From Candidatus Aenigmatarchaeota archaeon (lineage in GTDB: Archaea; Aenigmatarchaeota; Aenigmatarchaeia; GW2011-AR5; JACRAC01), in NCBI GenBank assembly GCA_016187395.1, contig JACPJV010000039.1:5663-69662 (forward strand): DNA of 64,000 bases, in the 5' to 3' direction. A program made the translations under genes and the position numbers. The notes under the pieces were generated by a model. It did no database searches. It saw nothing but the letters and a program-made list of their open reading frames with translations, and was not told where the DNA came from. This document shows positions 5,368-62,189 of the stretch, piece after piece. Each line of letters starts with the position of its first letter. Position 1 is the stretch's first letter.

Positions 5368-5452
5368 GATAATTATCTTCGGAAGCCTCCTCTTAAAACC
5401 CACGCCTTTAAAAATAGGTTTGGAGAAGGCATGGCTTAATTCAAGACTAATG

Positions 5453-6859
5453 TCAAGAATTCAGCTTCATGAATTTTGTGTTTTTCAACAAAGTTTCGTA
5501 ACTATTTCCGGTCATAGAGCATATTTTCTGCAGGAAATCCCTGGCTATGCCTTCGAATTGCACAAATGCTTTTGAGCCTATAAGTTCTATGCCGTGCGCA
5601 ATTATCGAATTATCGCGAATACGCACGGATCCCAAAAATCGCTTCAGGTCGTCAAAGGATTTTCCTTTCCACAATTCGTCTTGAAGCAGGGATAAGATTA
5701 TGTGACCGTCTTTGATGCCTATCTCTGCAGGCACGATTCTCTCTGTTCCGTATAGTTTTTTCGTCAACTCACCATATTTTATCTCTATTTCTGCAATCTT
5801 GCTGTACATAGGCTGGGAGGTGGTGATTCCATGCGTGCTCAGCCTGTACTGGGAAATCAGTTCCAGAAGCCGGTATAACCTGGTAATGGAATCTTCCTGC
5901 CGGTTCACTTCCTTTCTCCGCAACGCATTAAGGTACATGTCGATGAGCAGGTGAACAACAAAATCTTCATTTTTCAGGTTCTCCTCAAATTTCTGCCCGG
6001 GCTTAAGATTCGCCAGAAATTTCAATACCGCAAGATTATTTGCTATTTGCGCATGCTCAAACCTGATTCCGTATTGCCTTAATTTTCCCATCAATTCCTC
6101 CAGCTTTTTTTCAGCAGCTATGTAATTGAATGCATCCCACTGATCGTAGCCTTCAGCAAGCAGCGCCTTAATTTCGAATATTCTGGGATCTGCCACTTTT
6201 TTGCACAGGTCTCTGAATAAAATCGCTGCGGAATTAAACGAATACGTGTTGAACAGATAGGTTGCATGGTTATTCTCAAGCTCGCCAAAAACTTCATACG
6301 GATTTCTTACCCTTACAAGGGTTTCTGTTCCAGGCAGCCCCCGTTTTATTTCATCGATCCATTCCTCGTCAATGTAGACTATATCAAAACCAAAAAACGA
6401 TGCCATTATTCCTGCGCTCGCGGACATTATGCGCTTGCCTCTTGTCAGGTCTACGGCAACGCGCTTGCCTTCAAACAGCGGAAACCTGTCCTTTATTTTT
6501 CCATAAATTTCCGCCAAATCCATTCCAGAATATTCTATATCATCAATTTCATAATCCTCTCTTTTCAGACTTGCTTTTTGAATGATAAAATCAAGAAAAT
6601 AATTTCTGAACTCCTTTGTGCAGATAAAATAAACTTTCTTAGGTTTTAGGGCATTTATGAGGAGAATATAGTATCTTTTTTCCAACCCAGCCGGGATTAT
6701 CAGCCAATCGTACCGCGACATGCCCATTTCAGAGACTTTTTTTATAAGGGTTTTTTCTGAAATTTCATGCATATTTTCCCAATAAAGGACTTCGGCTTCA
6801 TTAAAATGACCTTTAAGGACAAGTTCTTTCCATTTTTCCCGTAACTGCCCAAGTTCCAT
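5453..6859 (-). CDS. CARF-domain protein with C-terminal HEPN-like motif (Cas02710-like), orphan
   Basis: N-terminal Rossmann-like pattern (WLIIPAG...VYFICT...VAVDLTRGKRIMSASAG). The C-terminal RIRDNSIIAHG fits the R-x4-6-H HEPN signature. ATG start at 6859; the track start is TTG. Confidence 0.6.
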   Translation of the reverse strand: MELGQLREKWKELVLKGHFNEAEVLYWENMHEISEKTLIKKVSEMGMSRYDWLIIPAGLEKRYYILLINALKPKKVYFICTKEFRNYFLDFIIQKASLKREDYEIDDIEYSGMDLAEIYGKIKDRFPLFEGKRVAVDLTRGKRIMSASAGIMASFFGFDIVYIDEEWIDEIKRGLPGTETLVRVRNPYEVFGELENNHATYLFNTYSFNSAAILFRDLCKKVADPRIFEIKALLAEGYDQWDAFNYIAAEKKLEELMGKLRQYGIRFEHAQIANNLAVLKFLANLKPGQKFEENLKNEDFVVHLLIDMYLNALRRKEVNRQEDSITRLYRLLELISQYRLSTHGITTSQPMYSKIAEIEIKYGELTKKLYGTERIVPAEIGIKDGHIILSLLQDELWKGKSFDDLKRFLGSVRIRDNSIIAHGIELIGSKAFVQFEGIARDFLQKICSMTGNSYETLLKNTKFMKLNS

Positions 6860-6927
6860 GGAAAAGATGGTAAACAAATTGTTATAAACCTTGTTTCTCA
6901 ATTAAATGCATGCCTCCGTAGCTCAGT

Positions 6928-7057
6928 TCCAATCCCTTTCAGAAGGCGAATGGACGTTCCTGCAGGAACGTCAGTTTGCAAACGAAAGAAAGGTCTTGGA
7001 GAACCCCAAAGAAAGGGAACGTTGCTTCGCAACGATAATATGGGATTGGAGAGAAAT
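6928..7057 (+). other. tRNA intron 1 (D-loop, non-canonical position, about 130 nt)
   Basis: A 9-bp closing helix (6928-6936 with 7042-7050) is flanked by unpaired triplets and a 3-bp helix, which is a relaxed BHB-like arrangement. Contains a copy of hairpin element E. Confidence 0.6.
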
Positions 7058-7079
7058 CTGGTAGAGCGGCTGCCTTGTA

Positions 7080-7252
7080 TCCAAGTGAAGCCGCCGAGCA
7101 AGGAAATTTCAAGCGGAAAAATGAAAGGAGCGTTCTCAAGGACGTAAGGGAGAACGCTCAGATTGCTTCCGAAGAAATTTCGCAGCGAGGCGAGCTGAAT
7201 GCGGAAGGAGTGCAGCGCTGCTGTTATGAGCAGTGTGCTATGAAAACAAGAC
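7080..7252 (+). other. tRNA intron 2 (canonical 37/38 position, about 173 nt)
   Basis: Anticodon-side CTTGT (7074-7078) pairs with intron ACAAG (7246-7250). A 3-nt bulge ACA (7251-7253) lies next to the anticodon stem, as expected for the 3' splice-site bulge. Confidence 0.7.
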
Positions 7253-7460
7253 AGCAGCAGGTCGTGAGTTCGATTCTCACCGGAGGCTTTGAGCAGGGAG
7301 TGCAAAGCCCCACCGACAGAGGCAAGAGGTTCGGGGTTCAAAGGATGAGCGTGGCGCATGTTTATCGGACAGATGTCAGGTATGCCCAGGCAGTGGCGCT
7401 CCTCAGGCGCGACCCGGCGGTTTCGTCCCGCGACAAGCAGATGATTTGCTCCGTATTATT

Positions 7461-7733
7461 ACCCACGCCTAAAGGTGTGGGTTTCTCAGAGCACAAGCAA
7501 GAGCGAAGCTCTTGCGGTGCAGCATGAATCTCCGATTCATGCTTGCAAAGCATGTCGGAAGCCTTCTGTATCATACAAGCAGGAGCATATCTCCTGCTGT
7601 ACAGGAGGAACGTTGTTCCTCCTTGTATCCTCCGCTTACAAGCAAGAGCGAAGCTCTTGCTGTACAGGTGAACCTTTGGTTCACCATGTAAAAGCGGAGG
7701 ATTTATGTGGAGGCTTCCGCCTATAATCCACAG
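7461..7733. repeat. composite hairpin repeat cluster (family F1)
   Basis: At least seven consecutive perfect hairpins, for example CAAGCAGGAGC/CTCCTGCTG, AGGAGGAAC/GTTCCTCCT, GGTGAACC/GGTTCACC. An outer stem ATCCTCCGCTT/AAGCGGAGGAT encloses two of them. Confidence 0.8.
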
Positions 7734-7908
7734 CCTTTCCTCCCACCAACTATTTAGGCATTTTGGTAGCAGAGTGTTGCCTGATTCTAGACAGGCAGGC
7801 ATGGAAATGCTCTTATACCAAAGGGCATTTTGTAGAAATTCGCCATAAATCCTGAAAATACTACCCTTTTATACTTATCGCCGGGTTAGTTTGGAAAGGT
7901 GACAATGT

Positions 7909-10211: not shown

Positions 10212-13200
10212 ATGGGTCATAGACTTTTGCTTGCATTAGTAGTCTTAGTTATATTCAGCTCTGCTGTTTACGGATATTCAAGAGAGGAAATCAATGTGAC
10301 ATCCTGCAGAGGCGTCACCTGTACTGTTGCGAACTTTAACATCAACACAAGCGCAACAATAGGAGCTTCGCCAGGAAAAGGTGATACAGTTTATACAGGG
10401 TGGTCTAACACCACTTTTCCTTCAGAAGCAACTATCCAGAAGGTCAGATTCAGGTTCAGATATACAGGGCAAAATGGTCTGGACAATTTATGGGAATTTG
10501 ATTTTAGAACAGAGAAATATGTAACTTCTTACTGTACAAACACACTAGTGCAGTGCGACGCAGCCTGCGATGTGTACTACGAAGCTAATCTAACAGAGCC
10601 CGGTTCTGTGTGCGACTGGACAAAATCAAAACTTGATGATCTGAACATATCTGTATTAAATAATGATGCAGGAGGAGGCAAGACAGGCGATGTAACCTTC
10701 ATGGACATGGAGGTGCAGTACGTCGTGGCGCCGAACGTCTCTGATCCTGTGACTGCGGACCTGGACGGAGTTGTCAAGAAAGAATTTCGCAACAGCGAGG
10801 AGGTGAATATCACCGTGAACGTGAGCGACTTCGAGGGTTCCGGCGATATAAGCACGGTTCGAATCACAATCATAGATTCGGCAAATACCGCAAGGGTGAA
10901 TAACGCTTCAATGACTGCAGGCCCTTCCATTGAAAAGGGCTTCATATACAATTTTACATACAACCTGAGCTTTCAGGGGCCTTCAGGCGAATGGAGGGCG
11001 AACATCTATGCCAACGACACAAACGGTTTCAACGGCACGAATTCAACCAGGTTCAACGTCACGGTGGTGCCTTATGTTAATGTGACGTTCATAAGCCCGA
11101 CGCCGGTAAACAACAGCAACATGACAGAGCTGGATATTTTGTTCATAAACACAAGCGCTTTCGGGGAAGTGAACAACATAGACGTATGCCTGCTGGAGTT
11201 TGACAGCGTTAATGAATCTATGACTAAAAACGCCTCAGGCAGAAGCGCCTACTGCGATAAGGCAAAAAGATCGCTTTCATTGGGGCAGCATTCGTACAAG
11301 GTCTACGCAAACGACACGAACAACAACTGGAACGTGACGGAGACAAGGAACATATCTGTAAATCCGCTCCAGTTCATAGCGATGCTGAATATCTCGCAGC
11401 TTCCCAGCCAGATAGGATGGACGTGCCAGTCATGTGTTGCAGGCGGAAAATTCTACGAGAGGCTTGTCAGGGGATTTGATGCGACAAATATCATGAGAGG
11501 TGTGCTTTCTGTGAGCCACAACTTCACGCAGATAAGCATCAACACGAGCGCACTCGCAGCACTTGCCCGTGGAGGAGGAGTAACATCTGCAACAAGCGCT
11601 TCGCACAGCCATTTGCCCGGAAGCGCAAGCACTACACAAACTCAAAGCATTATGCCTATATCAAAGAGCGTTATAGTTGCTAACAGGACGTATGCCAATG
11701 ACCTGATCATCCCTTCAGGCACGCTGCTTTTATTCAATTCGACGTCAGCTGTGCCTTCAGAGAACTGGACGATTGTCAACGGCTGGAATGATTTTCATCT
11801 TATAGGCAATGCAACATTCGGGCAGGAGATAGGAAGCAGGGCGCATAACCACACCCTGGTTGCAAACGGCACTAATACTTCAATAGACGATGCAGGAAGC
11901 GTTATAGTCGTAATCACTTCAGGGTTAGTTGCACTGGATGGCCACGTCCACCCGTTCCCAGAGGATGTTACAAGCACTCCATCTGCCCAAAGCTCGGCAA
12001 ACTTCGTGACTGCGATATTGGCGCAGGCTACATCAAATACGAATATTCCGGAACGCGCATATGCACTGTTTGACGGAACGCCGCCGCAGGGCTGGAAGGT
12101 GCAGAGCAACCCAGACAGCTGGTTCTACAACCGCACTATAATTCCGAACGGAACGTTTGGCGTGACAGGCGGCGATGAGAGCGGGCACAATCACACATCA
12201 CAGATATTGATAACAGGAACGACCACAACGGTCGTGGGAGACATCTCAGCACTATCTGAACCAGCTTCAGATGCAACGCATAAGCATGAGATGAACGTTT
12301 CTTACACAGAGGAAAAAGCCACACCTGCCTCGACAACGGTTATAGTCGCGCAGCGCAACGCAAAGCCGCGGGTCACGCAGCCGCAGTTCAACATCACAAA
12401 CGCAAACTGGTATCTGACTGCGAACACAACGGCCACAGACGCAGACCTTGAACCCCTTGAAGTCTATATCAACTGGACGATAAACGGAATATTCAGGGTG
12501 CAGAACAACTATACAGGCATCCTGAACGGCACGGTTGTGAACGATACGCTAAATCGTCTCAACGCAAGCTACGGCGGCGTGACGTACAAACCCGGCGATA
12601 ATATCACGGTCATGGTCTGGACAGGCGACACGTACGAAAACAGCACAAGCGCGCCAAATAACAGCATCATAGTGGATAATATCCCTCCCGCTATAACATA
12701 TCAATCACCAACGCCTGCGGAAGGCACGAACACAACGGAAAACTGGACAGCAGTCAACGCGACAATAAGCGACAATCTCTACAACACATCTGCTTTTATT
12801 GATTTCAACAGCTCTTTGATTGGCTACTGGTCGTTTGAAAATTTCGATAATTTGAATATATTCGACAATTCTTCATACGGTCTTAACGCATTCTACGCAA
12901 CGCAGGCAAACGCAAGAAACATAACCACAGGCTATTACGGAAACGGATTCCTGATGAACAGGAGCGGTGCATGCACAAGCTGCGGTCTGAATGCGACCAA
13001 TGCCACGCCTTTCTACTTCCAGAATGGATTGACACTCGAAGCATGGGTTATTGTGCATGAGAACACAACGCTTATAAAATATATAGTTGGAAAAAGAACG
13101 GCTTGGGACTTGACATCAGACAGGACTAATGAAATACAATTTTCTATAACAAACCAGACAGCGACAAGAGATCTTTCTTCAAACGCTGGGATAGACGGCG

Positions 13201-16200
13201 ACGGGAAATGGCATCATATAGCTGGAACGTGGAACGGAACGACCATGCGAGTGTATCTTGACGGAAACATAAAAAACAGCGCAGCCTTTGGCGGTTTAAT
13301 CAACTTATCTGAATGGCGTGTTTTTCTGGGCGGAAGAGATGGCTCGAACACTGGGTCAAACCAGACTTCAGACGAGGTAAAAATCTGGAGCCGTGCATTA
13401 AGTGCAGAGGAAATCAACGCAAGCATGAATACAGCAAAAACAAGCGGCAGCGTTTACAGCAACTTCACAGAACTCAGCGACGGAGTGCGCGCTTACCGCG
13501 TCTATGCCATTGACCAGGTCGGCAACCTGAATATCAGCAGCCAGCGCAGAGTCACAACAGACACAACGCCGCCGCAGGGCACGTACGTAAGCCCGACGCC
13601 CACAGACGGGGAAAATTCTACAAATACCACGTACACGTTCAATGCCACGGTTGACGATGCGCTGCTGCCTATAAGCGCAGTTCTGTTTGAGCTTGACGGG
13701 ACCAATTATACAGCCGGCACAAACGGCACAGGGATAAGCATTTATGCCAATTTCACGGCGTCAAGCCTTTCTGTGGACGTGCATTATTACAAGTTCTGGC
13801 TTAATGACACATTAAACAACAAAAACCAGACTCCGAGAAGAAACGTGACCGTGCAGGCTGCCGGGGCTGTGACAGGCCTGCTCATCGCTTCTCTGCTCAA
13901 TACAACGTACAACCTCACGGTACCGCAGAACGAGACGTTCTACATCAATGTGACGGTAGGGTGCCAGGGCGCAGGAAATATAACGTGCGGCACTGTCAAC
14001 GCAACAGCGCGCTACAATTTCACGTCAGCCACGGTCCCGGACACAGCGATTGATGATAAATTCTGGAACCAGACGCTGTACATCGTGAACGTGACGATGC
14101 GGAAGATGAGGAATTTGACTAGGGTGGGGAATTTGACACTTGAGCCGACTGAAAGTCTCTCTGTAGTTCTTATGGATTCTTATGGCAGTTTCTTATACGT
14201 GGCCACTGCTTCATCACCAAGCCATCTGATAAAAATAAATCTTATTGATTTCAAAAGAGCTGGAAATATTACTATTGAAAAACCCGGATTAGGAGAATAT
14301 AGTTTTCGTTCAGGAGTAATAGATACCAACAATGGCTTTCTATATCTAGGATCGCGTAATTCACAATCTCCTTCTGGAGAAATAATCAAGGTAAGACTTT
14401 CTGATCTAAAAGTAGTAGGAAACATTACTTTGAACCCCGGAGAACAAAATTTATCGTCGGCTGTTATAGATACAGAAAATGGTTTTGCGTACTTTGCGGC
14501 AACTGCACCACCAGGTATTATTGTAAAAATAAATCTTTTGAACTTTTCTAGAGTAGGTAATCTTACGCTCAATACCGGAGAGGATCAGATTATGACAGGC
14601 GTTATAGACATACAAAATCAATTTGCATATTTTGGAACTATAAGTTATGACGAGAGCAATACTGGAATCGTAAAGGTTAATCTATCTGATTTTACAAGAA
14701 TTGGAAATACGTCAGCGGCTCCTGGAGCTCCAGGATCATCTGTTATAGATGTCGATGCCGGATTTGCTTATTTTGGAACTGTACGAGGCGGTATTTTAAC
14801 TAACGATGTAATAAGAATAAATCTTTCTGACTTTAAGAGAGTCGGAAATGTTAGTATCGGTATAGGAGAATTGCAGTCAGCCGCTATAGATACAGTGAAT
14901 AAGATAGCATACTTTGCATGGGATGCGAATCCTTTAAATTTGACCAAGATAAACCTTTCAGATTTCACTTTGATTGGAAATGTTGAATTAAATGCAACGA
15001 AAATAGCATCATTAGGGATAAGCGATCCAAAAGCAGCTATTGATGTTTCCACTGGTTTTGCATATTTTGGCGCAGCAAACGATGATGTTACATTGGTAGT
15101 CAAAGTCAAAGTAGATCAAGTCCCGAAGCCGCGCAACGTGCTGGAGAGGGCTGGGAATTTGACGCTGGGCACAGGCGAGGACAACTTTACATATCAAGCA
15201 TCCGTAATTGATTCTGAGAAAGGAGTCGCATATTTCGGTACTGCTACCTCGCCTGCGAAAATAATAAAGGTTAATCTTTCTGACTTTAGGAAGATAGCAA
15301 CTATAACTTTGAATGCAGGCGAAAATAGTCTGCGCTCAGCTGCTATAGACGCCAAAAACGGTTTTGCATATTTTGGCACAGCCACAAATCCAGGTATTGT
15401 CGTCAAAATTAATCTTTCTGATTTTTCTAGGGTTGGAAATGTAACTTTGAATACGAATGAAGCCGATCTCAGATCCGCAGTTATAGATTCCGAGAAGAGA
15501 TTTGCTTATTTTGGCACCTTCACTCCACCGGCAATTATTGTGAAGATTAACCTCTCTGATTTCTCAAGATTAGGGAACTTAACCCTAAATACGGGCGAGG
15601 ATAACCTGACATCAGCTGTCATTGATACTGCAAGTGGTTTTGCTTACTTCGCTACACGGACAAATCCTGGCAAAATAATTAAGATTAACCTAACTGATTT
15701 CACTAGAGTAGGTTCAATTACACTGAATACAGGAGAGCGTACAATGGAATCGGGTGTAATTGATGTAACAAACGGCTTTGCTTATTTCGGTGGACTGTTC
15801 GGGAATGTTGTTAAGATAAATCTCTCAGATTTTACCAGAACAGATGGTATTGTGCTTCCAACAAGTATAGTATCCGGGGCGATTGATACACAAAACAATT
15901 TCATATATTTTGGGTCAGAAGACACTCCGGCTAATATAACAAGACTTAACTTATCAGATTTTGCCGGAAATATCACAATTAATTTAAATTCGAATGAAAA
16001 CTTTTCATATTCCGGATTTATAGATATAGAAAGAGGCTTTGCATATTTCGGTACGGATACTGCACCCGGAAGAATAATCAAAATCAACCTCCGCCAGCGG
16101 AACCCGGTGGATTGCGGCACGCTGTCGCAGGACGAGGGGGCGACGTGCCTGGTGAACTGGCTCGTAAGGGCACCTGGCCCGGTAGGCACGCAGCATTTTG

Positions 16201-16715
16201 TTGATGGGATGGCTAACTCATCGCTGGCAGGAGACAACCAGAGCGCAGATTTCCAGGTGAATATAACGGGAATTACGAAGTCAATCGCACTTGCTTTGTC
16301 GAATGCTCTCTCACGGCAGATACACTGGACAATTGATGTCTTACCTATATTCCAGCAGTTTGCTGATGGAAATAATGGAACAAATTCAACTGATTACAGG
16401 ATAAACGTATCAGCTACAGGCACTACTGTAGATGTCTATATACGCGCAAGCGGACCTCTCGCAACACCCGGAGGAACTGCCCTTATAGGACTTCCGAACG
16501 AAACGTTCAGCTACAACACGACCAATGTAAATGTTCCAAGCGCAAACAACCGTTCTCTAACCACAAGCTTTTCTGACAACAAGATAGGTGACAACCTGAT
16601 CAGTGGCTCTGGAATTTTCCTGAAATTCTTCTTGAACGTCAGCAGCGGTCAGGACGCAGGAACTTATAACAACACCGTCGAAATCAAGGCCGTGGAGGCT
16701 GGGCAGGCGCCTTAG
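10212..16715 (+). CDS. giant surface glycoprotein/adhesin (2167 aa): Ig-like domains, LamG-like lectin domain, 14 propeller-type repeats, C-terminal pilin-like domain
   Basis: Signal peptide and very many N-x-S/T sequons. The LamG/ConA-like block is GYYGNGF...LTLEAWV...GKWHHIAGTWNGTTMRVYLDGN...VFLGGR...DEVKIWSRALS. Long uninterrupted ORF. Confidence 0.9.
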   Translation: MGHRLLLALVVLVIFSSAVYGYSREEINVTSCRGVTCTVANFNINTSATIGASPGKGDTVYTGWSNTTFPSEATIQKVRFRFRYTGQNGLDNLWEFDFRTEKYVTSYCTNTLVQCDAACDVYYEANLTEPGSVCDWTKSKLDDLNISVLNNDAGGGKTGDVTFMDMEVQYVVAPNVSDPVTADLDGVVKKEFRNSEEVNITVNVSDFEGSGDISTVRITIIDSANTARVNNASMTAGPSIEKGFIYNFTYNLSFQGPSGEWRANIYANDTNGFNGTNSTRFNVTVVPYVNVTFISPTPVNNSNMTELDILFINTSAFGEVNNIDVCLLEFDSVNESMTKNASGRSAYCDKAKRSLSLGQHSYKVYANDTNNNWNVTETRNISVNPLQFIAMLNISQLPSQIGWTCQSCVAGGKFYERLVRGFDATNIMRGVLSVSHNFTQISINTSALAALARGGGVTSATSASHSHLPGSASTTQTQSIMPISKSVIVANRTYANDLIIPSGTLLLFNSTSAVPSENWTIVNGWNDFHLIGNATFGQEIGSRAHNHTLVANGTNTSIDDAGSVIVVITSGLVALDGHVHPFPEDVTSTPSAQSSANFVTAILAQATSNTNIPERAYALFDGTPPQGWKVQSNPDSWFYNRTIIPNGTFGVTGGDESGHNHTSQILITGTTTTVVGDISALSEPASDATHKHEMNVSYTEEKATPASTTVIVAQRNAKPRVTQPQFNITNANWYLTANTTATDADLEPLEVYINWTINGIFRVQNNYTGILNGTVVNDTLNRLNASYGGVTYKPGDNITVMVWTGDTYENSTSAPNNSIIVDNIPPAITYQSPTPAEGTNTTENWTAVNATISDNLYNTSAFIDFNSSLIGYWSFENFDNLNIFDNSSYGLNAFYATQANARNITTGYYGNGFLMNRSGACTSCGLNATNATPFYFQNGLTLEAWVIVHENTTLIKYIVGKRTAWDLTSDRTNEIQFSITNQTATRDLSSNAGIDGDGKWHHIAGTWNGTTMRVYLDGNIKNSAAFGGLINLSEWRVFLGGRDGSNTGSNQTSDEVKIWSRALSAEEINASMNTAKTSGSVYSNFTELSDGVRAYRVYAIDQVGNLNISSQRRVTTDTTPPQGTYVSPTPTDGENSTNTTYTFNATVDDALLPISAVLFELDGTNYTAGTNGTGISIYANFTASSLSVDVHYYKFWLNDTLNNKNQTPRRNVTVQAAGAVTGLLIASLLNTTYNLTVPQNETFYINVTVGCQGAGNITCGTVNATARYNFTSATVPDTAIDDKFWNQTLYIVNVTMRKMRNLTRVGNLTLEPTESLSVVLMDSYGSFLYVATASSPSHLIKINLIDFKRAGNITIEKPGLGEYSFRSGVIDTNNGFLYLGSRNSQSPSGEIIKVRLSDLKVVGNITLNPGEQNLSSAVIDTENGFAYFAATAPPGIIVKINLLNFSRVGNLTLNTGEDQIMTGVIDIQNQFAYFGTISYDESNTGIVKVNLSDFTRIGNTSAAPGAPGSSVIDVDAGFAYFGTVRGGILTNDVIRINLSDFKRVGNVSIGIGELQSAAIDTVNKIAYFAWDANPLNLTKINLSDFTLIGNVELNATKIASLGISDPKAAIDVSTGFAYFGAANDDVTLVVKVKVDQVPKPRNVLERAGNLTLGTGEDNFTYQASVIDSEKGVAYFGTATSPAKIIKVNLSDFRKIATITLNAGENSLRSAAIDAKNGFAYFGTATNPGIVVKINLSDFSRVGNVTLNTNEADLRSAVIDSEKRFAYFGTFTPPAIIVKINLSDFSRLGNLTLNTGEDNLTSAVIDTASGFAYFATRTNPGKIIKINLTDFTRVGSITLNTGERTMESGVIDVTNGFAYFGGLFGNVVKINLSDFTRTDGIVLPTSIVSGAIDTQNNFIYFGSEDTPANITRLNLSDFAGNITINLNSNENFSYSGFIDIERGFAYFGTDTAPGRIIKINLRQRNPVDCGTLSQDEGATCLVNWLVRAPGPVGTQHFVDGMANSSLAGDNQSADFQVNITGITKSIALALSNALSRQIHWTIDVLPIFQQFADGNNGTNSTDYRINVSATGTTVDVYIRASGPLATPGGTALIGLPNETFSYNTTNVNVPSANNRSLTTSFSDNKIGDNLISGSGIFLKFFLNVSSGQDAGTYNNTVEIKAVEAGQAP
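14106..16092 (+). repeat. 14 tandem about-42-47-aa coding repeats arranged 7+7
   Basis: The recurrent unit is (I/V)NLSDF-R(V/I/L)GN-TLN-GE--L-SAVID---GFAYFGT---PG-I(V/I)KI. A non-repeat linker (VKVDQVPKPRNVLE) lies near 15110-15160. Confidence 0.8.
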
Positions 16716-18916: not shown

Positions 18917-18983
18917 ATGTACAACAAACAGCCTGCACTTTACTCCATCCGCGGCATCAACTGCAGCGGGGAGGGGCTGTGAA
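18917..18983 (+). repeat. junction repeat J (diverged copy)
   Basis: Reads in frame as ...QPALYSIRGINCSGEGL*, compared with ...ELVLYSIRGRNRNGEGR* in other copies. Ends directly against the stop of the ATPase gene at 18984. Confidence 0.7.
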
Positions 18984-23243: not shown

Positions 23244-23307
23244 GCCGCCGACGGCAACGAACTTGTGCTTTATTCTGTGAGAGGCAGAAACTGCAACGGG
23301 GAGGGGC
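23244..23307 (+). repeat. junction repeat J (3' 64 nt)
   Basis: Reads AADGNELVLYSVRGRNCNGEGP*. Differs from other copies mainly by synonymous changes. Confidence 0.8.
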
Positions 23308-23317
23308 CTTAGGCAAA

Positions 23318-24673: not shown

Positions 24674-25034
24674 CCGACATATTTAATAGGATGCCCAGTC
24701 CAATGCCTCGAAGTCTGCCCGTGCGATGTTCTGCCCGGAGAGATGCAGAATCTTCGCGCCAGAAGAAACGGCCGCAATGTCGAATTGTACTGGCCTACCG
24801 AGCCGCTTTCACAGGAATATGGCATAGACAGGGAGGTGAACGCCACACGCGCATCTGCTGACCAGAGCTTCAACCCGGCACGCGTAAACACGACAAGCGG
24901 CTTACAGTATACGGATGCCGGCGTTGCCGGCGACGGCAACGAGCTTGTGCTTTATTCTGTTAGGGGCAGAAAGGCGAATGGACGTTTGCCGCAGCAAACG
25001 TCAGTCTGCACTTCGCAACGGGGAGGGGCGGTGA
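24674..25034 (+). pseudogene. 3' fragment of an Fn3-like surface-protein gene (longest J copy), disrupted by hairpin element E
   Basis: Open from the stop at 24671. Encodes ...LPGEMQNLRARRNGRNVELYWPTEPLSQEYGIDREVNATRASADQSFNPARVNTTSGLQYTDAGVAGDGNELVLYSVRG (Fn3-like pattern). A 45-nt insert then shifts the frame before the conserved NGEGR* end. Confidence 0.6.
24970..25014. repeat. hairpin element E (GGCGAATGGAC...GTCAGTCTGC)
   Basis: 45 nt replace the GAACT found at the same place in intact J copies. It forms a long imperfect hairpin around GTTTGCCGCAGCAAAC. Confidence 0.75.
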
Positions 25035-25742: not shown

Positions 25743-25859
25743 CAGTTAGAGGCAGGGAGGCGAATGGACTGCGAGTGAGTAGACACTTTCTGCAGAAAGT
25801 GTCATTTGCCTCCGCTGCAGGAATGTCAGTCTGCATTCTGCAGCGGAGAGGGGCGGTAG
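25743..25859 (+). repeat. junction repeat J (short) carrying nested hairpin element E
   Basis: CAGTTAGAGGCAG, then an 89-nt E insert (25756-25844), then GGAGAGGGGCGGTAG. Confidence 0.7.
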
Positions 25860-25865
25860 GCTGAT

Positions 25866-27395: not shown

Positions 27396-27540
27396 CGCAT
27401 CCGCAGACAGAAGATTCAACCCGGCGCGCGCAAACACGACAAGCGGGCTGAGCTATACTGACGCCGGCGTCGCCGCCGACGGCAACGAGCTTGTGCTTTA
27501 TTCTGTTAGGGGCAGGAACTGCAACGGGGAAGGGAATTAG
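27396..27540 (+). repeat. junction repeat J (145 nt)
   Basis: Reads ASADRRFNPARANTTSGLSYTDAGVAADGNELVLYSVRGRNCNGEGN*. Its stop overlaps the stop of the convergent ATPase gene. Confidence 0.85.
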
Positions 27541-28784
27541 GCAGCAAGCAACCATTTCCACAGAGGCATGAACTTCACCTTGGCTTTTATTCCGAACCAC
27601 TTTACCTGTTTTTGCGCTTCATAGTCCTCTGTTATGATAACCAGATTTCTGCATTTGAGTTCTTTCCCCGCTTTTACAAGCGCCCTGACTTCCCTGTTCC
27701 TCGTCTTTATATCGCTGACGTCGCAGCAGACCTGAATCAGCTGCTTTACCTTGATACCTTTCTTTACAACAAAGTCGACTTCCTCCTGCTGCGGATTTTT
27801 CCAGTAATAAATCCTTGCAATGCCGTTCATTTCACGCTTTTTGAGCTCGATTGCAACGGCATTTTCATACAGCCTTCCCGTATCAGGGCTCAGCCTGAAA
27901 GCTTTTGCATAGACAAATCCGTTGTCGATGCAGTATATTTTCTTGCTGAAAGCTATCTGCTCTTTTACCTTTGGTGAAAATCTTTCTATCCTGAAGAAAA
28001 TAAAGGCTTCTTCCAGATAGTTCAGGTACCTCTCCACTGTATGAACGCTTTTGCATTTCGCGATTTTGCTCAGCGTGTTGTAGGAAAACTCCCTTGCTAT
28101 ATTGGAAACAAGATAAGCGGCAAGGTCCTCAATAGCGCGTACAGACCTTATCCTGTATCTTTTCACTATGTCTTTAAAGATTATGGAGCTGAACAGGGTT
28201 GAGAGATAATCCATGTGATCCAGTTTTTTAACCAGAGGTTCCGGATAGCCGCCGTGAGTAATGTAAAAAACCAACCTTTCCTTTATTTCGCTTTTCGTCA
28301 ATTCCCTGTTCTCAAGCATGAGAAATTCCTGAAAAGAAAACGGGAAGATGTTTATAAGGGTGTGCCTGCCAGTCAGATGCGTCGCCATCTCCCTGCTGAG
28401 CAGCTTTGAATTGCTCCCGGTAATAACAAGATTGTACCCCTGCCTCTGCAGCCTGTTTGCAAACAGTTCCCACTTGTCTATATTCTGAATCTCATCGAGC
28501 AGAAGGCATTTCGGAGCCTTATATATAGAGTTTAGCGCATCGATTATTTCATCATAATTTTTCACTTCCACAAGTTTTTCGTCATCAAAATTGGCGTACC
28601 CAAAAACTCCAAATCTGTTCAGTGCATGGGTGGCAAAAAATGATTTACCTGACCTTCTCGGTCCTATAATCACCTTTATCATAGTGCTGTCCAAGTTTTT
28701 GATATTCACGTTTCTTTCTACATAGCTTTCTTGCAGCTTTTTTTCAAGCTCCCTTTTCTGAATAAGCAGTATATCCCTCAGCAT
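27537..28784 (-). CDS. AAA+ ATPase, AAA_14/DUF4143 type (COG1373-like)
   Basis: Walker A GPRRSGKS and Walker B LLLDEIQ. C-terminal EEVDFVV...LIQVCC. Shares the C-terminal PLWKWLLAA with 23318-24616. Confidence 0.85.
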   Translation of the reverse strand: MLRDILLIQKRELEKKLQESYVERNVNIKNLDSTMIKVIIGPRRSGKSFFATHALNRFGVFGYANFDDEKLVEVKNYDEIIDALNSIYKAPKCLLLDEIQNIDKWELFANRLQRQGYNLVITGSNSKLLSREMATHLTGRHTLINIFPFSFQEFLMLENRELTKSEIKERLVFYITHGGYPEPLVKKLDHMDYLSTLFSSIIFKDIVKRYRIRSVRAIEDLAAYLVSNIAREFSYNTLSKIAKCKSVHTVERYLNYLEEAFIFFRIERFSPKVKEQIAFSKKIYCIDNGFVYAKAFRLSPDTGRLYENAVAIELKKREMNGIARIYYWKNPQQEEVDFVVKKGIKVKQLIQVCCDVSDIKTRNREVRALVKAGKELKCRNLVIITEDYEAQKQVKWFGIKAKVKFMPLWKWLLAA

Positions 28785-28845
28785 GGTTTATCATAGTGCA
28801 CAAAAGTATATAAATTTATGCATTATGAATCTTATGCATCAGCAG

Positions 28846-28979
28846 ACAGGAGCTTCAACCCGGCACGTGTAAATACGACAAGCGGACTTACTTATACTGA
28901 TGCTGTTGTCGTAGCCGACGGCAACGAGCTTGTGCTTTATTCTATCCGCGGCAGGAACCGCAACGGGGAGGGGCGGTGA
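28846..28979 (+). repeat. junction repeat J (134 nt)
   Basis: Reads ASADRSFNPARVNTTSGLTYTDAVVVADGNELVLYSIRGRNRNGEGR*. Confidence 0.85.
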
Positions 28980-28983
28980 GGAT

Positions 28984-30137: not shown

Positions 30138-30230
30138 AAGAGGCAGGGAGGTGAATGGACTGACGAGTAATTAATATCAATATTTTCTCTCGTCAGTCAA
30201 TCTGCATCCTGCAGCTGGAAGGGGCGTTAG
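30138..30230 (+). repeat. junction repeat J (short) carrying hairpin element E
   Basis: AAAGAGGCAG, then the E insert (30147-30215, GGAGGTGAATGGACTGACGAG...CTCGTCAGTCAATCTGC), then GGAAGGGGCGTTAG. Its stop overlaps the HxlR gene stop. Confidence 0.7.
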
Positions 30231-30571: not shown

Positions 30572-30715
30572 TGCCTTAATTTTGATTGCAAAGCTTTAAT
30601 GTGAAACAAGGAATATGGCTAATTTCTACTGGGCCAACATTATCGAGTTTCGGTATCTTTTTGGTAACTACATTCGAACCGAAATCTTTATTTGCCGCTA
30701 TTTCTTAGTCTAAGC

Positions 30716-31390
30716 ATGATTCCGCTATTAGCTATGGGTAGGCATATTAACACAAAGCCTCACATAAGTTCTTACATTCTGGGAGCAGCTGTTCTGGTTA
30801 TCTTTATATCAGCGCTTGGCATATTTGATTACGCTATAACTGGTTTTGCCACGGCGACGCAGAGCACGGGTTCTAACGTAACTATTTCAGGGTATATCGC
30901 CATAGCGCTTTCCACAAACTTGAGCAGGGGAATAGAATTCGGCACGATAACCCTGCTGCCGGCGAACCAGACGAATGCAACGGCAAGCTACCAGAACTAT
31001 ACAGGCGGGGGAGGGCCTGGCGGAGGGCTGAATTATACCCTGTACAACGCTTCTGTCTCAACAGACTCAAACCAGAACGTGGACTTCTGCGTAAAAGGCA
31101 GCGGGCCTTTTGCGACCTCAGGAGGCGCCAATTCGTTCGCGCTGGCAAACCTGACGTGGTACGACAACAAAACAATAAACAACGACACGCACCCGCCAGG
31201 CGGGCCTTTCAGGGGCTTTTTCGGAATATCTGCGACTACGAGCTATGTGAAGGGAGAAGTTGCTGTCAGCGCAGGCAATGAGAACAACTACAGGTTCTGG
31301 CTCAACGTAAGCGGAGGGCAGGCAGCAGGCGATTACAATACAACAATATCGTTCCGCGGCACTACTGCCGGAGACGCGTGCGGGTCGTAA
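30716..31390 (+). CDS. secreted pilin-like glycoprotein A1
   Basis: N-terminal hydrophobic segment. Blocks ITGFATATQST, IALSTNLSRGIEFGTITLLPANQTNATA and YRFWLNVSGGQAAGDYNTTISFR. Conserved C-terminal GDACGS. Paralog of 32133-32798. Confidence 0.75.
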   Translation: MIPLLAMGRHINTKPHISSYILGAAVLVIFISALGIFDYAITGFATATQSTGSNVTISGYIAIALSTNLSRGIEFGTITLLPANQTNATASYQNYTGGGGPGGGLNYTLYNASVSTDSNQNVDFCVKGSGPFATSGGANSFALANLTWYDNKTINNDTHPPGGPFRGFFGISATTSYVKGEVAVSAGNENNYRFWLNVSGGQAAGDYNTTISFRGTTAGDACGS

Positions 31391-31403
31391 AACAAATAGA
31401 AAT

Positions 31404-32090
31404 ATGAGGCGTCTTAGAGGTGGATGGATGAAAGCAAATAGGGGAAAATGTGCGGATTCAAGTCACTCTTTATTGCTACTGCTTCTGATGTTTTTAATTA
31501 TTACAGTGTTTAATTCTTTTCCAGCATACGCTGAAAGAGGCGTGGGCATAAAATGGTACACTGAAGCGGAGATTATGAAGGAAGAAACAACAAGGTGCCT
31601 GAACTACGGAATATACAGTCCGTGGAGCGAGTACGTGAACGCCATTTTAAGGGCTTCTGATGAATTCTCTCCTGTTGTCGCAGAACAGACAAGCGAGCCG
31701 GTTTTTGTGGCGGCAGGCACTTCCAGCTCAGACGCGCTTCATTCTGACCTGTGTTTTAAAATGGGGGATGTTTACGATGAGAACTGCCTTCTCGGGCCTT
31801 TGCTGTGCGAAAGGACGTGCCCTCAAGAGAGATTTGAATACGCAGGCCAGGTCATAGTCGAGGAGGCGCCGAGGGACGCAGAGCTGAGAGGGACCGGCTC
31901 GGGCACGACATTCGGCGTTGCAGCTCCGCTGAGGCTTATAGTAGACTGCCAGAATCTGCAAAGAGATTATACGCCGCTTTTGTTCGTAGGAGGGATCGTA
32001 GGAGGTGTGGCGACCGCTGTTGCAGTCAAAAGGCACCGCTCGCACGGGAAGAAAGGCAGGAAGAAATATCACTTTGTGATTAAGATATAA
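31404..32090 (+). CDS. signal-peptide protein B1 with C-terminal TM and basic tail
   Basis: Blocks GVGIKWYTE, YGIYSPW, YAGQVIVEEAP and VAAPLRLIVDC. C-terminus is TPLLFVGGIVGGVATAVAV plus KRHRSHGKKGRKK. Paralog of 32826-33521. Confidence 0.75.
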   Translation: MRRLRGGWMKANRGKCADSSHSLLLLLLMFLIITVFNSFPAYAERGVGIKWYTEAEIMKEETTRCLNYGIYSPWSEYVNAILRASDEFSPVVAEQTSEPVFVAAGTSSSDALHSDLCFKMGDVYDENCLLGPLLCERTCPQERFEYAGQVIVEEAPRDAELRGTGSGTTFGVAAPLRLIVDCQNLQRDYTPLLFVGGIVGGVATAVAVKRHRSHGKKGRKKYHFVIKI

Positions 32091-32132
32091 CTCTCGCAAT
32101 CTTTATTTACAGAATAAAACCAGTATTCACAC

Positions 32133-32798
32133 ATGACCTCACCGGCTATGGACAGAAACGCATCCGCAAAACCACATGTAAGAATTTACGCGATGGGTGT
32201 ATCGGTCATGCTGATCATGGTATCCGCAATTGGCGTATTGAACTACACAATAACAGGGTTTGCGAGCGCAACGCAAAGCACGAATACGAATGTCACGATA
32301 GCAGCTGCCATATCCATAGCGCTGTCCACAAACTTGAGCAAGGGAATAGAATTCGGCACGATAACCCTGCTGCCGGCAAACCAGACGAATGCAACGGCAA
32401 ACTACGCAAACACAACCGGAGGCGGGGGGCCGGGCGACCTGAACATCACGCTGTATAACGTTACGCTGTCCAGCGATTCGACTGAGAATGCGGACTTCTG
32501 CGTAAGGGCAAACGGCGATATGTGCACGTCAGCCTGCTCAAGCCGCATAGGAATCGCAAATATAACATGGGCAGCTAACACGACAAACAATCTCACTCAT
32601 CCGCCAACAGGCGTTTTCCGCGCGCTTTTTGGAAGAAGCATGGCAACGGGCTTTGACAAGGGAGATATCAACCTGGCCCCTGGAGGGGTGACTCACTACA
32701 GATTCTGGCTCAACGTCAGCGGCGCACAGGCGGCAGGAGATTACAACAACACCGTAGACTTCCGGGCTGTGTCTACAGGCGACGCGTGCGGCTCATAG
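32133..32798 (+). CDS. secreted pilin-like glycoprotein A2
   Basis: Colinear with A1 and has the same C-terminal GDACGS. Confidence 0.75.
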   Translation: MTSPAMDRNASAKPHVRIYAMGVSVMLIMVSAIGVLNYTITGFASATQSTNTNVTIAAAISIALSTNLSKGIEFGTITLLPANQTNATANYANTTGGGGPGDLNITLYNVTLSSDSTENADFCVRANGDMCTSACSSRIGIANITWAANTTNNLTHPPTGVFRALFGRSMATGFDKGDINLAPGGVTHYRFWLNVSGAQAAGDYNNTVDFRAVSTGDACGS

Positions 32799-32825
32799 AG
32801 AGGTGAATGCAAGAAAAGAAGATCG

Positions 32826-33521
32826 GTGATTAATGTGAAAATGATTGAAGAAAAGGAAATGAGAGGAATGAATAGAAAAGGGAATGCAGCCGTGCATGCC
32901 CTGTCAAAATCAGGCAGCCTGCTTGTTATTGCAGTTCTTGCATTCGCGTTCCTCATGCCTCCTGCCCATGCAGAAAAAGGTGTTGGCCTGAAATGGTTTA
33001 CAGAGAACGAGAATGTTGCAGAGGAGAGCATGCACTGCATAGACTATGGCATCTACAACCCATGGAATACCGACGTAAATGCTGTTCTGAAGGTTTCTGG
33101 TGAATTTTTGCAGGTTGCAGAGATGAAGAAAAGCGAACCTGTTTTCGTTAAGGCAGCCACTGCAAGCTCTGCTGCGCTGCCGTCCAGAATCTGCTTCAGA
33201 ATAGGCGACACCTATGAAGAAGAATGCCTGATAGGCAACTGGTTTTGCGACAGGACATGTCCAAAGGAGCAGCGTGAATATGCAGGGCAGGTCGTAGTCG
33301 AGGAAGCTCCGGAAGAAAGCACTGTGGGTGGCACAGGCGCCATGGTCACGTTCAGCGTTGCCGCGCCGCTGCGGCTTGTCGTGGAATGCAGGGATGAAAA
33401 ACGCGACTTAACGCCGCTTTATTATATTGGCGGCATCGCAACAGGTACGGTGATGTTCACGGTTGCGAAGAAATACGATCCTGAAAAAAAGCGGAGAAAG
33501 TCTCGTACCGTGATACAGTGA
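32826..33521 (+). CDS. signal-peptide protein B2 with C-terminal TM and basic tail (true start probably ATG 32841-32868)
   Basis: Colinear with B1. The track start is GTG. Confidence 0.7.
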   Translation: MINVKMIEEKEMRGMNRKGNAAVHALSKSGSLLVIAVLAFAFLMPPAHAEKGVGLKWFTENENVAEESMHCIDYGIYNPWNTDVNAVLKVSGEFLQVAEMKKSEPVFVKAATASSAALPSRICFRIGDTYEEECLIGNWFCDRTCPKEQREYAGQVVVEEAPEESTVGGTGAMVTFSVAAPLRLVVECRDEKRDLTPLYYIGGIATGTVMFTVAKKYDPEKKRRKSRTVIQ

Positions 33522-33540
33522 GCAGGGAAGTATCATACCC

Positions 33541-33915
33541 TGGTTTACAAGCAGGAACGAAGTTCCTGCTGTACATGGAAAACTGAAAGTTTTCCAGTAC
33601 TGATGAACCTTTGGTTCATCATGTACAGAATGAGCTTTGCTCATTCTTGTATTCCTTGCATCACTATGACATGCTTCTGATATGAACCACCGCATAAATG
33701 CGGTGGTTTCTTGAAGCATGGCATGCCAAAGAAGTTCGATATCTTATCCTCTGCTTATCTGTGAAGAACCGAAGGTTCTTCAAGACCTCAAAGAAGCTTT
33801 GCTTCTTTGCAGGAAAGCAGAGGTTTTAGAACTTCTTTGAGCATAAAGATATGATGCACAAAGAACTTCGTTCATTATAGTGAATCAATGAAATGACCCC
33901 GACAAGATTTCATTG
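33541..33915. repeat. composite hairpin repeat cluster (family F1, largest)
   Basis: Four tandem perfect hairpins, then ATTCCTTGCATCACTATG, further hairpins including the GCAGGAAAGCAGAGGTTTTAGA module, and a final TATAGTGAATCAATGAAAT...ATTTCATTG. Confidence 0.85.
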
Positions 33916-36625: not shown

Positions 36626-36795
36626 GTGCACCTATACTCCCCTGCCTAAAGGCAGGGGTTTCCCTGTGTGCACAGCATCTCGAAAGCCCCGGTATCTTAC
36701 AAGAAGGAGCAAAGCTCCTTCTGTACAGGAGAACTCTTCGAGTTCTCCTTGTATCCTCTGCTTAAAAGCAGAGGTTTTAGAGGGGCTTTCGAAGA
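36626..36795. repeat. composite hairpin repeat cluster (family F1)
   Basis: CCCCTGCC-TAAA-GGCAGGGG, then the outer stem TCTCGAAAGCCCC/GGGGCTTTCGAAGA enclosing three perfect hairpins in a cloverleaf-like layout. Confidence 0.8.
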
Positions 36796-40892: not shown

Positions 40893-41043
40893 TATAGTGA
40901 TGCAAGGAATACAAGAATGAGCGAAGCTCATTCTGTACAGCAGGAACTTCGTTCCTGCTTGTAAATCAGGATATAATACTTCCTTGCTCACTATATGTGA
41001 AACCACAAGTATGATATCCTGTTTATTTTGTGGTTTCACTATA
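40893..41043. repeat. family F1 full unit (about 150 nt)
   Basis: TATAGTGATGCAAGGAAT, two hairpins, AAATCAGGAT...CTTCCTTGCTCACTATA, then TGTGAAACCACAA...TTGTGGTTTCACTATA. This is the inverted counterpart of 61942-62100. Confidence 0.85.
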
Positions 41044-42318: not shown

Positions 42319-42661
42319 TCTTGAAGCAAAGCCTTGGAAGAGCGAAGCTCTTCAAGGTCCCGAAGAAGCTTTGCTTCTTTGCAGGAAAGCAGAGGTTTTA
42401 GAGGGCTTCCGAAGATATAGTGAAGCAAATTAATAATCCCGACTAGAAATTTGCTTCACATATAGTGCGCAAGGAATTATCATATAGCGATTTATTCCTT
42501 GCAGCACTATAAATATGCAGCGAGGGCAAACTGGTTTTGTCCCAAAGCCAACACTACCAAAAGAGATAAATTAGCAGATACAGCAGGAGCTTCGCTCCTG
42601 CTTGTAGTGCGCAAGGAATTATTATATCAGACTAATCCTATTTATTCCTTGCAGCACTATA
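42319..42661. repeat. composite hairpin repeat clusters (family F1, two adjacent)
   Basis: Contains a 40-nt block identical to 33791-33830. Modules include TATAGTGAAGCAAAT...ATTTGCTTCAC and TATAGTGCGCAAGGAAT...ATTCCTTGCAGCACTATA (the latter twice). Confidence 0.85.
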
Positions 42662-46666: not shown

Positions 46667-46785
46667 ACTTCCTTGGGCACTACAAGCAGGAGCGAAGCTC
46701 CTGCTGTACAGCAGAACTCTTCGAGTTCTGCTTGTATATGTGAAACAATGAAATCATATCGGGATTATTTCATTGTTTCACTATA
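46667..46785. repeat. family F1 cluster
   Basis: ACTTCCTTGGGCACTA, two perfect hairpins, then TATATGTGAAACAATGAAAT...ATTTCATTGTTTCACTATA. Confidence 0.8.
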
Positions 46786-61827: not shown

Positions 61828-61906
61828 AAAGGCGAATGGACGTGATTGAATGGACATTCCTGCAGGAATGTCGGTTTGCCTTCGCTGCAGGAACTTCAGT
61901 TTGTAA
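61828..61906. repeat. hairpin element E (with internal duplication)
   Basis: GAAAGGCGAATGGACGTGATTGAATGGACATTCCTGCAGGAATGTCGGTTTGCC...CTGCAGGAACTTCAGTTTGT. Confidence 0.7.
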
Positions 61907-61941: not shown

Positions 61942-62189
61942 TATAGTGAAACCACAAAATAAACAGGATATCATATTTGTGGTTTCACCGATAGTAAGCA
62001 AGGAATTATTATATCCTGATTTACAAGCAGTAACGAAGTTCCTGCTGTACAGAATGAGCTTCGCTCATTCTTGTATTCCTTGCATCACTATAACTGAGCA
62101 TTTCTACAGAGCCCTGATTTACAAGCAGAAGCAAAGCTTCTGCGGTACATGAGGAACGGAGTTCCTCATTGTATTCCTTGCATGACTAT
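61942..62189. repeat. family F1 cluster (full unit plus second partial unit)
   Basis: Reverse-oriented counterpart of 40893-41043, followed by a second pair of hairpins ending ATTCCTTGCATGACTATG. Contains the stop codon of the gene at 62186. Confidence 0.85.

Follow-up and report, generated by a model that had tools for sequence, protein, structure and literature searches.

A probable tRNA-Thr(UGU) gene interrupted by two long introns in a Candidatus Aenigmarchaeota genome

The introns of archaeal tRNA genes are described in a review as 'less than 100 nt' (PMC4033280), and the long cases on record include the 103-nt intron of the Haloferax volcanii tRNA-Trp (PMC7714728) and the 121-nt intron of the Aeropyrum pernix tRNA-Asp, which was called 'unusually long' (PMC4307357). 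tRNAs with more than one intron (up to three), introns placed in the D-arm and relaxed splice motifs have been reported from Crenarchaeota, Nanoarchaeum, Korarchaeum and ARMAN (PMC4033280, PMC4090602, PMC8450103), and a D-arm intron in the tRNA-Thr(UGU) of A. pernix is spliced in vivo (PMC4307357). The 64-kb stretch of contig JACPJV010000039.1 analysed here (the window) contains at positions 6912-7288 what is very probably a functional archaeal tRNA-Thr(UGU) gene with two introns of the bulge-helix-bulge (BHB) type, in a genome of Candidatus Aenigmarchaeota (DPANN). The structure of the exons, the geometry of the splice sites and the archaeal host are observed in the present data, as are the non-coding character of the locus and its repeat content. 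A first-pass annotation, made from the sequence alone, had already read the locus as an intron-containing tRNA-Thr(UGU) gene, and this reading is supported by flawless exons, an archaeal host, BHB geometry and the non-coding nature of the overlapping open reading frames (ORFs).

Genes of this kind are already known, since tRNAs with multiple introns, D-arm introns and relaxed motifs are documented in Archaea, including the DPANN lineages. Distinctive features of the present gene are the length of its introns, its lineage, the presence of one canonical and one relaxed splice site in each intron, and a repeat in intron 1. At 130 and 173 nt, the introns exceed the 103- and 121-nt examples, the comparison being with the literature and not with GtRNAdb or SPLITSdb; against those cases and the review figure of less than 100 nt, their earlier description as 'exceptionally long' is fair. 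If spliced as proposed below, the gene extends the length range of endonuclease-spliced tRNA introns beyond these examples, adds the Aenigmarchaeota to the lineages with multi-intron tRNAs, and implies that a broad-specificity EndA is present there.

Among Thermoproteales and other Crenarchaeota, multi-intron tRNAs such as the three-intron tRNA-Pro of Pyrobaculum likewise carry more than one intron, at position 37/38 and in the D-arm. They likewise have relaxed HBh' or hBH motifs in place of the strict hBHBh' (h, outer helix; B, bulge; H, central helix; h', inner helix), and splicing there depends on proteins, EndA and a ligase (PMC4307357, PMC4090602). The A. pernix gene encodes the same isoacceptor, Thr-UGU, but its D-arm intron lies 22 nt from the 5' end, whereas that of the present gene lies at 15/16. 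Unlike the multi-intron tRNAs of the TACK archaea, whose introns are typically tens of nucleotides long, the gene described here has a DPANN host and introns of 130 and 173 nt; unlike crenarchaeal introns, its intron 1 contains a dispersed genomic repeat. The disrupted tRNAs of ARMAN-2 (Micrarchaeota), which has an epsilon2 endonuclease, are likewise from a DPANN archaeon and include introns in non-canonical locations as well as two-intron tRNAs. They share with the present gene the relaxed hBH motif (bulge-helix-loop, BHL), which is cleaved in vitro (PMC3239211, PMC12397907); however, the ARMAN-2 introns tested were short (13 and 25 nt) and lay in the T-loop or at 37/38. H. volcanii tRNA-Trp likewise has a long, structured intron at 37/38, which is excised by EndA and gives rise to a stable or circular RNA (PMC7714728). 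Haloferax requires the strict hBHBh' motif, however, whereas the 5' site of intron 2 is relaxed in the present gene, which also has a second intron, in the D-loop. The Haloferax intron hosts a box C/D RNA, whereas neither intron described here contains a C/D box pair: no C-box-like motif was found in either, and a single CUGA occurs in intron 2, so that neither has the make-up of a box C/D small RNA.

The gene is composed as follows.

6912..6926, plus strand: exon 1; acceptor 5' strand, U8, A9, D-stem 5' strand, A14 and G15; T6927 is an equally possible end
6927..7056, plus strand: intron 1, 130 nt, in the D-loop at position 15/16; equivalent in sequence to 6928-7057 at 16/17
6944..6979, plus strand: hairpin repeat module within intron 1; AGGCGAATGGAC, a stem-loop, then GTCAGTTTGC
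7057..7079, plus strand: exon 2, 23 nt; rest of the D-loop from U16 with G18 and G19, D-stem 3' strand, G26, anticodon-stem 5' strand and anticodon loop through A37; anticodon TGT at 7076-7078
7080..7252, plus strand: intron 2, 173 nt, at the canonical position 37/38; relaxed hBH (BHL-like)
7253..7288, plus strand: exon 3, 36 nt; A38, anticodon-stem 3' strand, variable loop AGGTC, T-arm GTGAG TTCGATT CTCAC, acceptor 3' strand and discriminator T

Joined, the exons (6912-6926 or 6927, 7057 or 7058-7079, and 7253-7288) form a 74-nt tRNA-Thr(UGU) that reads GCCTCCGTAGCTCAGTCTGGTAGAGCGGCTGCCTTGTAAGCAGCAGGTCGTGAGTTCGATTCTCACCGGAGGCT. The cloverleaf is the minimum-energy structure of this sequence (-30.7 kcal/mol, RNAfold), and ARAGORN identifies it as a tRNA-Thr(tgt) of 74 nt; when only intron 1 is deleted, ARAGORN with the -i option returns a tRNA-Thr(tgt) whose intron, of 173 nt, adjoins the anticodon. 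The customary conserved and tertiary positions can all be read from the exons: U8, A14, G15/C48, G18G19, A21, G26/A44, U33, A37, G53:C61, the T54-T55-C56 loop and A58. The acceptor end has G1:C72, C2:G71 and discriminator U73, which we take to agree with archaeal tRNA-Thr identity; the 3' CCA is not encoded in the gene. Once the introns are removed, the exons give a canonical cloverleaf with zero deviations across 74 nt. The cloverleaf that the first-pass annotation had assembled from 6912-6927, 7058-7079 and 7253-7288 is thus borne out by RNAfold, by ARAGORN and by the conserved positions. The 20-mer GGTAGAGCGGCTGCCTTGTA of exon 2 is also present in 113 uninterrupted phage and bacterial tRNA-Thr(UGU) genes in IMG/VR, and AGCAG stands directly 3' of it in all 12 of the commonest variants printed; the joining of exons 2 and 3 therefore recreates a natural anticodon arm. 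The three pieces are collinear, on one strand and within 377 nt, so the gene is neither a split nor a permuted tRNA gene.

The geometry of the splice sites leads to the same junctions. Cleavage at a BHB motif is taken to occur after the second base of the bulge, and the chance rates given here were estimated from two million random site pairs within the window. In both introns, one splice site is of textbook form, with a helix on either side of a 3-nt bulge, and the other is relaxed. In intron 1, the inner helix h' is a perfect 9 bp between TCCAATCCC (6928-6936) and GGGATTGGA (7042-7050), a helix that had been noticed previously, and the central helix H pairs CTC (6922-6924) with GAG (7051-7053), which amounts to three of four pairs, the fourth being G.A. 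The 5' splice site is located inside the 3-nt bulge A-G|T (6925-6927), between H and h', and the 3' splice site in AAT (7055-7057), where the cut given by the ruler (4 plus 2 nt beyond the end of h') coincides exactly with that required by the D-loop. T6927 and T7057 are the same base, which leaves the boundary of the intron ambiguous by 1 nt without affecting the mature sequence; the BHB ruler fits 6926|6927 and 7056|7057 (position 15/16) and not 6927|6928. Thus, the D-loop intron of about 130 nt in the first-pass annotation stands, but its placement at 16/17 gives way to 15/16. Intron 1 scores 3/4 for H, 9 for h' and 0 for h, and belongs to the relaxed HBh' type; its geometry (H of at least 3, h' of at least 9) is found in 3.5e-5 of the random site pairs.

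In intron 2, H is formed by CTTG (7074-7077; positions 32-35) and CAAG (7247-7250), with four of four pairs; positions 32-35 also pair with the intron in canonical pre-tRNAs (PMC4090602). The slightly longer pairing proposed earlier, CTTGT (7074-7078) with ACAAG (7246-7250), is present. The 3' splice site is located inside the 3-nt bulge A-C|A (7251-7253), between H and the anticodon stem of 5 bp. The other splice site, on the 5' side, is in T-A|T (7078-7080), after the central helix, and the inner helix is not contiguous: the candidate h', CC (7081-7082) with GG (7203-7204), is the start of a long imperfect helix, and on the opposite strand 42 nt (7205-7246) that include a hairpin (7212-7238) lie between it and H. 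Intron 2 scores 4/4 for H, 5 for h and 0 for contiguous h', a geometry (H = 4, h of at least 5) found in 1.9e-4 of the random site pairs. Its coordinates, and the 173 nt given by ARAGORN -i, confirm the 173-nt intron previously placed at the canonical 37/38 position.

Both introns therefore have relaxed motifs (HBh', and hBH or BHL), with predicted cuts that coincide with the cloverleaf-defined junctions; no strict BHB motif was found at the splice sites of either. Explicit scoring with the ruler agrees in this respect with the partial BHB geometry that the first-pass annotation saw at both junctions. A looser test that allowed any partner within 450 nt is passed by 4% (intron 1) and 17% (intron 2) of random positions and says much less, so that the evidential weight lies on the agreement of the splice sites with the cloverleaf. 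A BHB-like motif around exon 2 (TGG 7059-7061 with CCA 7081-7083), which would join both relaxed sites, amounts to just 3+3 bp and would form a pseudoknot across the anticodon stem; it was not relied on. Similarity between the two introns is not significant (local alignment score of 20, against 16.1 +/- 2.3 for shuffles).

The precursor is much more strongly folded than shuffled sequences (z = -7.8), and its unconstrained minimum-energy fold retains the acceptor, D and T stems. Because the 5' D-stem strand is also needed for the central helix of intron 1, the precursor has to alternate between two conformers, which constrained folding places at comparable energies (-143.1 kcal/mol for the HBh' conformer and -141.8 kcal/mol for the D-stem conformer).

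A precursor of about 377 nt, 80% of it intron, would be transcribed from a TATA-like element upstream. A broad-specificity EndA would then cut at 6926|6927, 7056|7057, 7079|7080 and 7252|7253, in each intron after the second base of the bulge at the canonical site and at a point set by the 4-bp ruler helix at the relaxed site. The 15-, 23- and 36-nt exons would be joined by an RtcB-type ligase, the introns probably being circularised, and a CCA-adding enzyme would complete the tRNA after end processing. The predicted exon junctions are GCTCAG|TCTGGTAG and CCTTGTA|AGCAGC, and the predicted circular-intron junctions are GGAGAGAAA|TTCCAATCC and AACAAGAC|TCCAAGTG. [quoted passage not shown] EndA also excises rRNA precursors of 1.6-3 kb (PMC7714728); thus, the endonuclease mechanism has no inherent length limit. 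Neither EndA nor RtcB was found in the scanned ORFs of the window.

An interrupted gene could also result from self-splicing introns of group I or group II, which occur in tRNA genes of bacteria and organelles. Both introns are highly structured, and group I introns are known in DPANN archaea, including an rRNA gene of Aenigmarchaeota (PMC6125680). However, all 39 archaeal group I introns of that study are located in rRNA genes, and lengths of 130 and 173 nt fall short of a group I core with its paired regions. No Rfam intron family is matched over the whole window at the gathering score or over 6700-7600 at E<=10, and the splice sites fit the BHB geometry. Self-splicing is therefore highly improbable.

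The gene, from a little-studied DPANN archaeon, escapes standard detection. ARAGORN reports no tRNA in the native DNA of the whole window, with or without its intron mode, and Rfam gives no match at the locus in the whole window at the gathering score and no tRNA over 6700-7600 at E<=10. The ARAGORN intron search proposed in the first-pass annotation as a check is thus silent on native DNA but recovers the tRNA-Thr(tgt) once intron 1 has been removed. A scan of both strands for hidden tRNAs (T-stem of 5 bp, TTCRANN loop and 7-nt acceptor strand, the complement of the latter lying at most 1.2 kb upstream) returns the locus at 6912-7288 only, in 128 kb of scanned strand; a relaxed version of the scan adds noise only, with no further hidden tRNAs within the window. 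Hidden disrupted genes have already been suspected behind the incomplete tRNA sets of DPANN and Asgard archaea (PMC5829648). The locus is a worked example of a disrupted tRNA gene missed by ARAGORN and Rfam, and it argues for higher intron-length limits and relaxed motifs when tRNA sets are derived from such metagenome-assembled genomes (MAGs). Inferences on completeness or the genetic code that rest on MAG tRNA sets would be affected as well.

ORFs do exist at the locus, including one of 153 aa on the minus strand and one of 150 aa on the plus strand, and one of them might be a real gene, the resemblance to a tRNA then being due to chance. However, the codon log-odds of the overlapping ORFs are near 0 (-0.08 to 0.02, compared with 0.24-0.40 in ten confident genes), no Pfam match was found for them, and a search of 5.8 billion proteins, made for the 153-aa ORF only, gave no homologue. 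Furthermore, the three collinear pieces that form a perfect cloverleaf are unique in the 128 kb of scanned strand. A coding region or a chance resemblance is thus barely conceivable, and the first-pass annotation was right to treat these ORFs as artefacts. Non-coding sequence extends from about 6860 to 7870.

An archaeal host, Candidatus Aenigmarchaeota (DPANN), is supported by the neighbouring coding sequences. MBI2584168.1 and MBI2584169.1, two proteins of a Candidatus Aenigmarchaeota MAG, match the flanking P-type ATPase and TIGR02710/Csm6-family protein at 100% identity, the next-best homologues being only about 55% identical and mostly from other DPANN archaea; several 'archaeal ATPase' (PF01637/DUF234) genes are also present inside the window. 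An independent assembly of the same population, Logan contig SRR12113424_83151 (1.6 kb, equivalent to window 5376-6977), shows no difference over the promoter region, exon 1 and the initial 51 nt of intron 1. Thus, the exon 1/intron 1 junction is not an artefact of MAG assembly. The Logan contig stops inside the hairpin module of intron 1, as would be expected at a repeat with several copies in the genome.

In the consensus of the module, GGYGAATGGAC and then GTCARTYTGC enclose a variable stem-loop, of which the loop is often CTGCAG. Five copies occur, all on the plus strand (6944-6979, 24972-25012, 25758-25837, 30149-30210 and 61830-61905), and the tops of their stems differ in a compensatory way. 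A conserved 12-mer of the module is found six times within one mismatch (four exact; five of the six in module copies), compared with 0.23 expected by chance. A search of the JGI metagenome collection with the module pattern gave 11 matches, all of them chance matches in high-GC bacterial sequence, and did not find the family. Intron 1 also contains, at 7025-7034, the sequence CTTCGCAACG, common to the module copy at 24.97 kb; this corresponds to about 10 nt of the flanking host repeat. The host repeat, of about 150 nt, has seven copies in the same orientation.

18925-18982: copy of the ~150-nt repeat
23244-23315: copy of the ~150-nt repeat
24851-25030: copy of the ~150-nt repeat
25750-25860: copy of the ~150-nt repeat
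27397-27543: copy of the ~150-nt repeat
28836-28982: copy of the ~150-nt repeat
30140-30225: copy of the ~150-nt repeat

Its pattern is ...CTTGTGCTTTATTCTGT.AG.GGCAG, a slot, then CYGCARCGGGGAGGGGCGGT, with individual copies of up to about 150 nt. The slot (GGCAGRRA^CYGCARCGG) is filled with the module in three of the seven copies and empty in the other four. These repeats separate genes on either strand, namely archaeal ATPase paralogues, a PIN toxin pair and a nucleotidyltransferase (MNT-like) pair. The arrangement is reminiscent of a cassette array, but neither an integrase nor a recombinase was seen in the window.

Intron 1 is thus at least partly common to non-tRNA repeats. The introns owe their length to stacked hairpins, at least one of which is a member of a short repeat family that is dispersed in the same genome. 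Their length could be a snapshot of growth or gain driven by a mobile structured element, although this must be regarded as a tentative and rather unlikely proposal. Recurrence of intron sequence elsewhere in the genome is likewise known from intron transposition in Thermoproteales and from the tRNA-Thr(GGU) of Caldiarchaeum (PMC3293823, PMC4033280), where the mobile-element locus has a threonine tRNA as host, as does the present one. Unlike the intron families of Thermoproteales, however, the module recurs in intergenic repeats between toxin-antitoxin and ATPase genes and not in tRNA introns, and unlike transposed introns it lies within the intron, is not part of the splice motif and is not accompanied by a recombinase seen in the window. 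The module bears on how non-canonical tRNA introns arise or grow, whether by transposition, by mobile-element integration or by another route. If it is mobile or recombinogenic, or acts as a protein-binding RNA on the circular intron, it would link tRNA introns to a cassette-array repeat system in DPANN archaea.

Two other readings of the module and its surroundings were dropped. The start of intron 1 gives only a sub-threshold match to a CRISPR repeat (Rfam CRISPR-DR35), with 18.7 bits against a gathering score of 35 and E = 1; the other module copies lack the intron-1-start sequence, and no array was seen in the window. Strict BHB candidates on the plus strand around the non-tRNA module copies face competition from much stronger hairpins and were judged coincidental; in the one examined, at the 25.8-kb copy, removal would not regenerate the 'empty' repeat.

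Several observations weigh against a functional tRNA gene. Neither intron has the strict hBHBh' motif, since one site in each has no closing helix; in intron 1, no outer helix h closes the bulge at the 3' splice site. The unconstrained minimum of the precursor (-154.3 kcal/mol) mispairs the anticodon stem and lies 11-12 kcal/mol below the splicing-competent folds, and there is no oligo-T terminator directly 3' of the gene. Searches by DNA pattern and synteny found no relatives, so there is no support from covariation: a 20-mer of exon 3 matched two unrelated bacterial tRNAs in genome contigs and one phage tRNA in viral contigs, and the contigs of the nearest ATPase and Csm6-family homologues show no conserved neighbourhood and no tRNA. 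Finally, the dispersed repeat held by intron 1 is also compatible with a gene broken by insertion.

The last point, together with the incomplete BHB motif in both introns, would suit a tRNA pseudogene, that is, an intact gene broken by two repeat or mobile insertions and replaced by a copy elsewhere. The module has filled and empty sites elsewhere in the window, short hairpin repeats are abundant in the genome, some of them 200 nt 3' of the tRNA gene, and a second tRNA-Thr(UGU) gene may exist outside the 64-kb window. However, a pseudogene would have to combine such insertions with 74 exonic nucleotides that show not one departure from the canonical cloverleaf. The module sits in the interior of intron 1, away from the intron ends, and the geometry of those ends restores the tRNA, a property with chance rates of 3.5e-5 and 1.9e-4 that random insertions would not supply. 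Intron 2 lies at the universal 37/38 position, with positions 32-35 canonically paired to the intron. Neither degenerate exons nor the lack of a tRNA-restoring splice motif is thus observed, and a pseudogene is an unlikely explanation compared with a functional gene with two BHB-type introns.

Midway between the tRNA gene and a divergent Csm6-family gene lies a perfectly symmetric element.

6872..6897: promoter-like element AAACAA-ATTG-TTATAA-ACCT-TTGTTT, between the tRNA gene and the divergent Csm6-family gene

Within it, positions 6882-6887 form the TATA-like TTATAA, whose centre lies about 27 nt upstream of position 1 of the tRNA and about 26 nt upstream of the ATG of the Csm6-family gene (6859, minus strand). 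The element looks like a bidirectional archaeal promoter with TATA and B recognition element (BRE) motifs; if so, the Csm6-family mRNA would be leaderless. The gene itself (5453-6859, minus strand), of the Csm6/TIGR02710 CARF-HEPN family, is solitary: the scanned ORFs yielded no other cas gene, nor was a CRISPR array seen anywhere in the 64-kb window. DPANN archaea account for most of its homologues at 45-55% identity.

On the 3' side of the tRNA gene, about 580 nt (7289-7870) carry no coding signal, an ORF at 7362-7802 scoring -0.085. The segment 7289-7720 folds very strongly (z = -8.4) and has no Rfam match in the part scanned (to 7600). A second repeat family is also present in the window, in which TACAAG ... 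CTGTACAG ... CTTGTA frames two or three hairpins in tandem (1838-2008, 7492-7693, 33539-33667, 36698-36754, 40893-40979, 42579-42606, 46681-46737 and 62015-62189). Its members are mostly located just 3' of genes, one set being 200 nt downstream of the tRNA. The frame CTTGTA is identical to the anticodon-loop sequence of the tRNA-Thr(UGU), which is probably a coincidence.

Two giant ORFs elsewhere in the window are both probably surface proteins. The first (10212-16715, plus strand) encodes 2167 aa with a Laminin_G_3 domain and contains about a dozen tandem repeats of approximately 138 nt at 14.2-16.0 kb; the second (50836-60381, minus strand) encodes 3181 aa, with internal repeats of approximately 290 nt. 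In addition, four tandem paralogous ORFs of about 220-232 aa, none with a Pfam or NCBIfam match, occupy 30692-33521 on the plus strand, and the first and third of these share 74% DNA identity over 270 nt.

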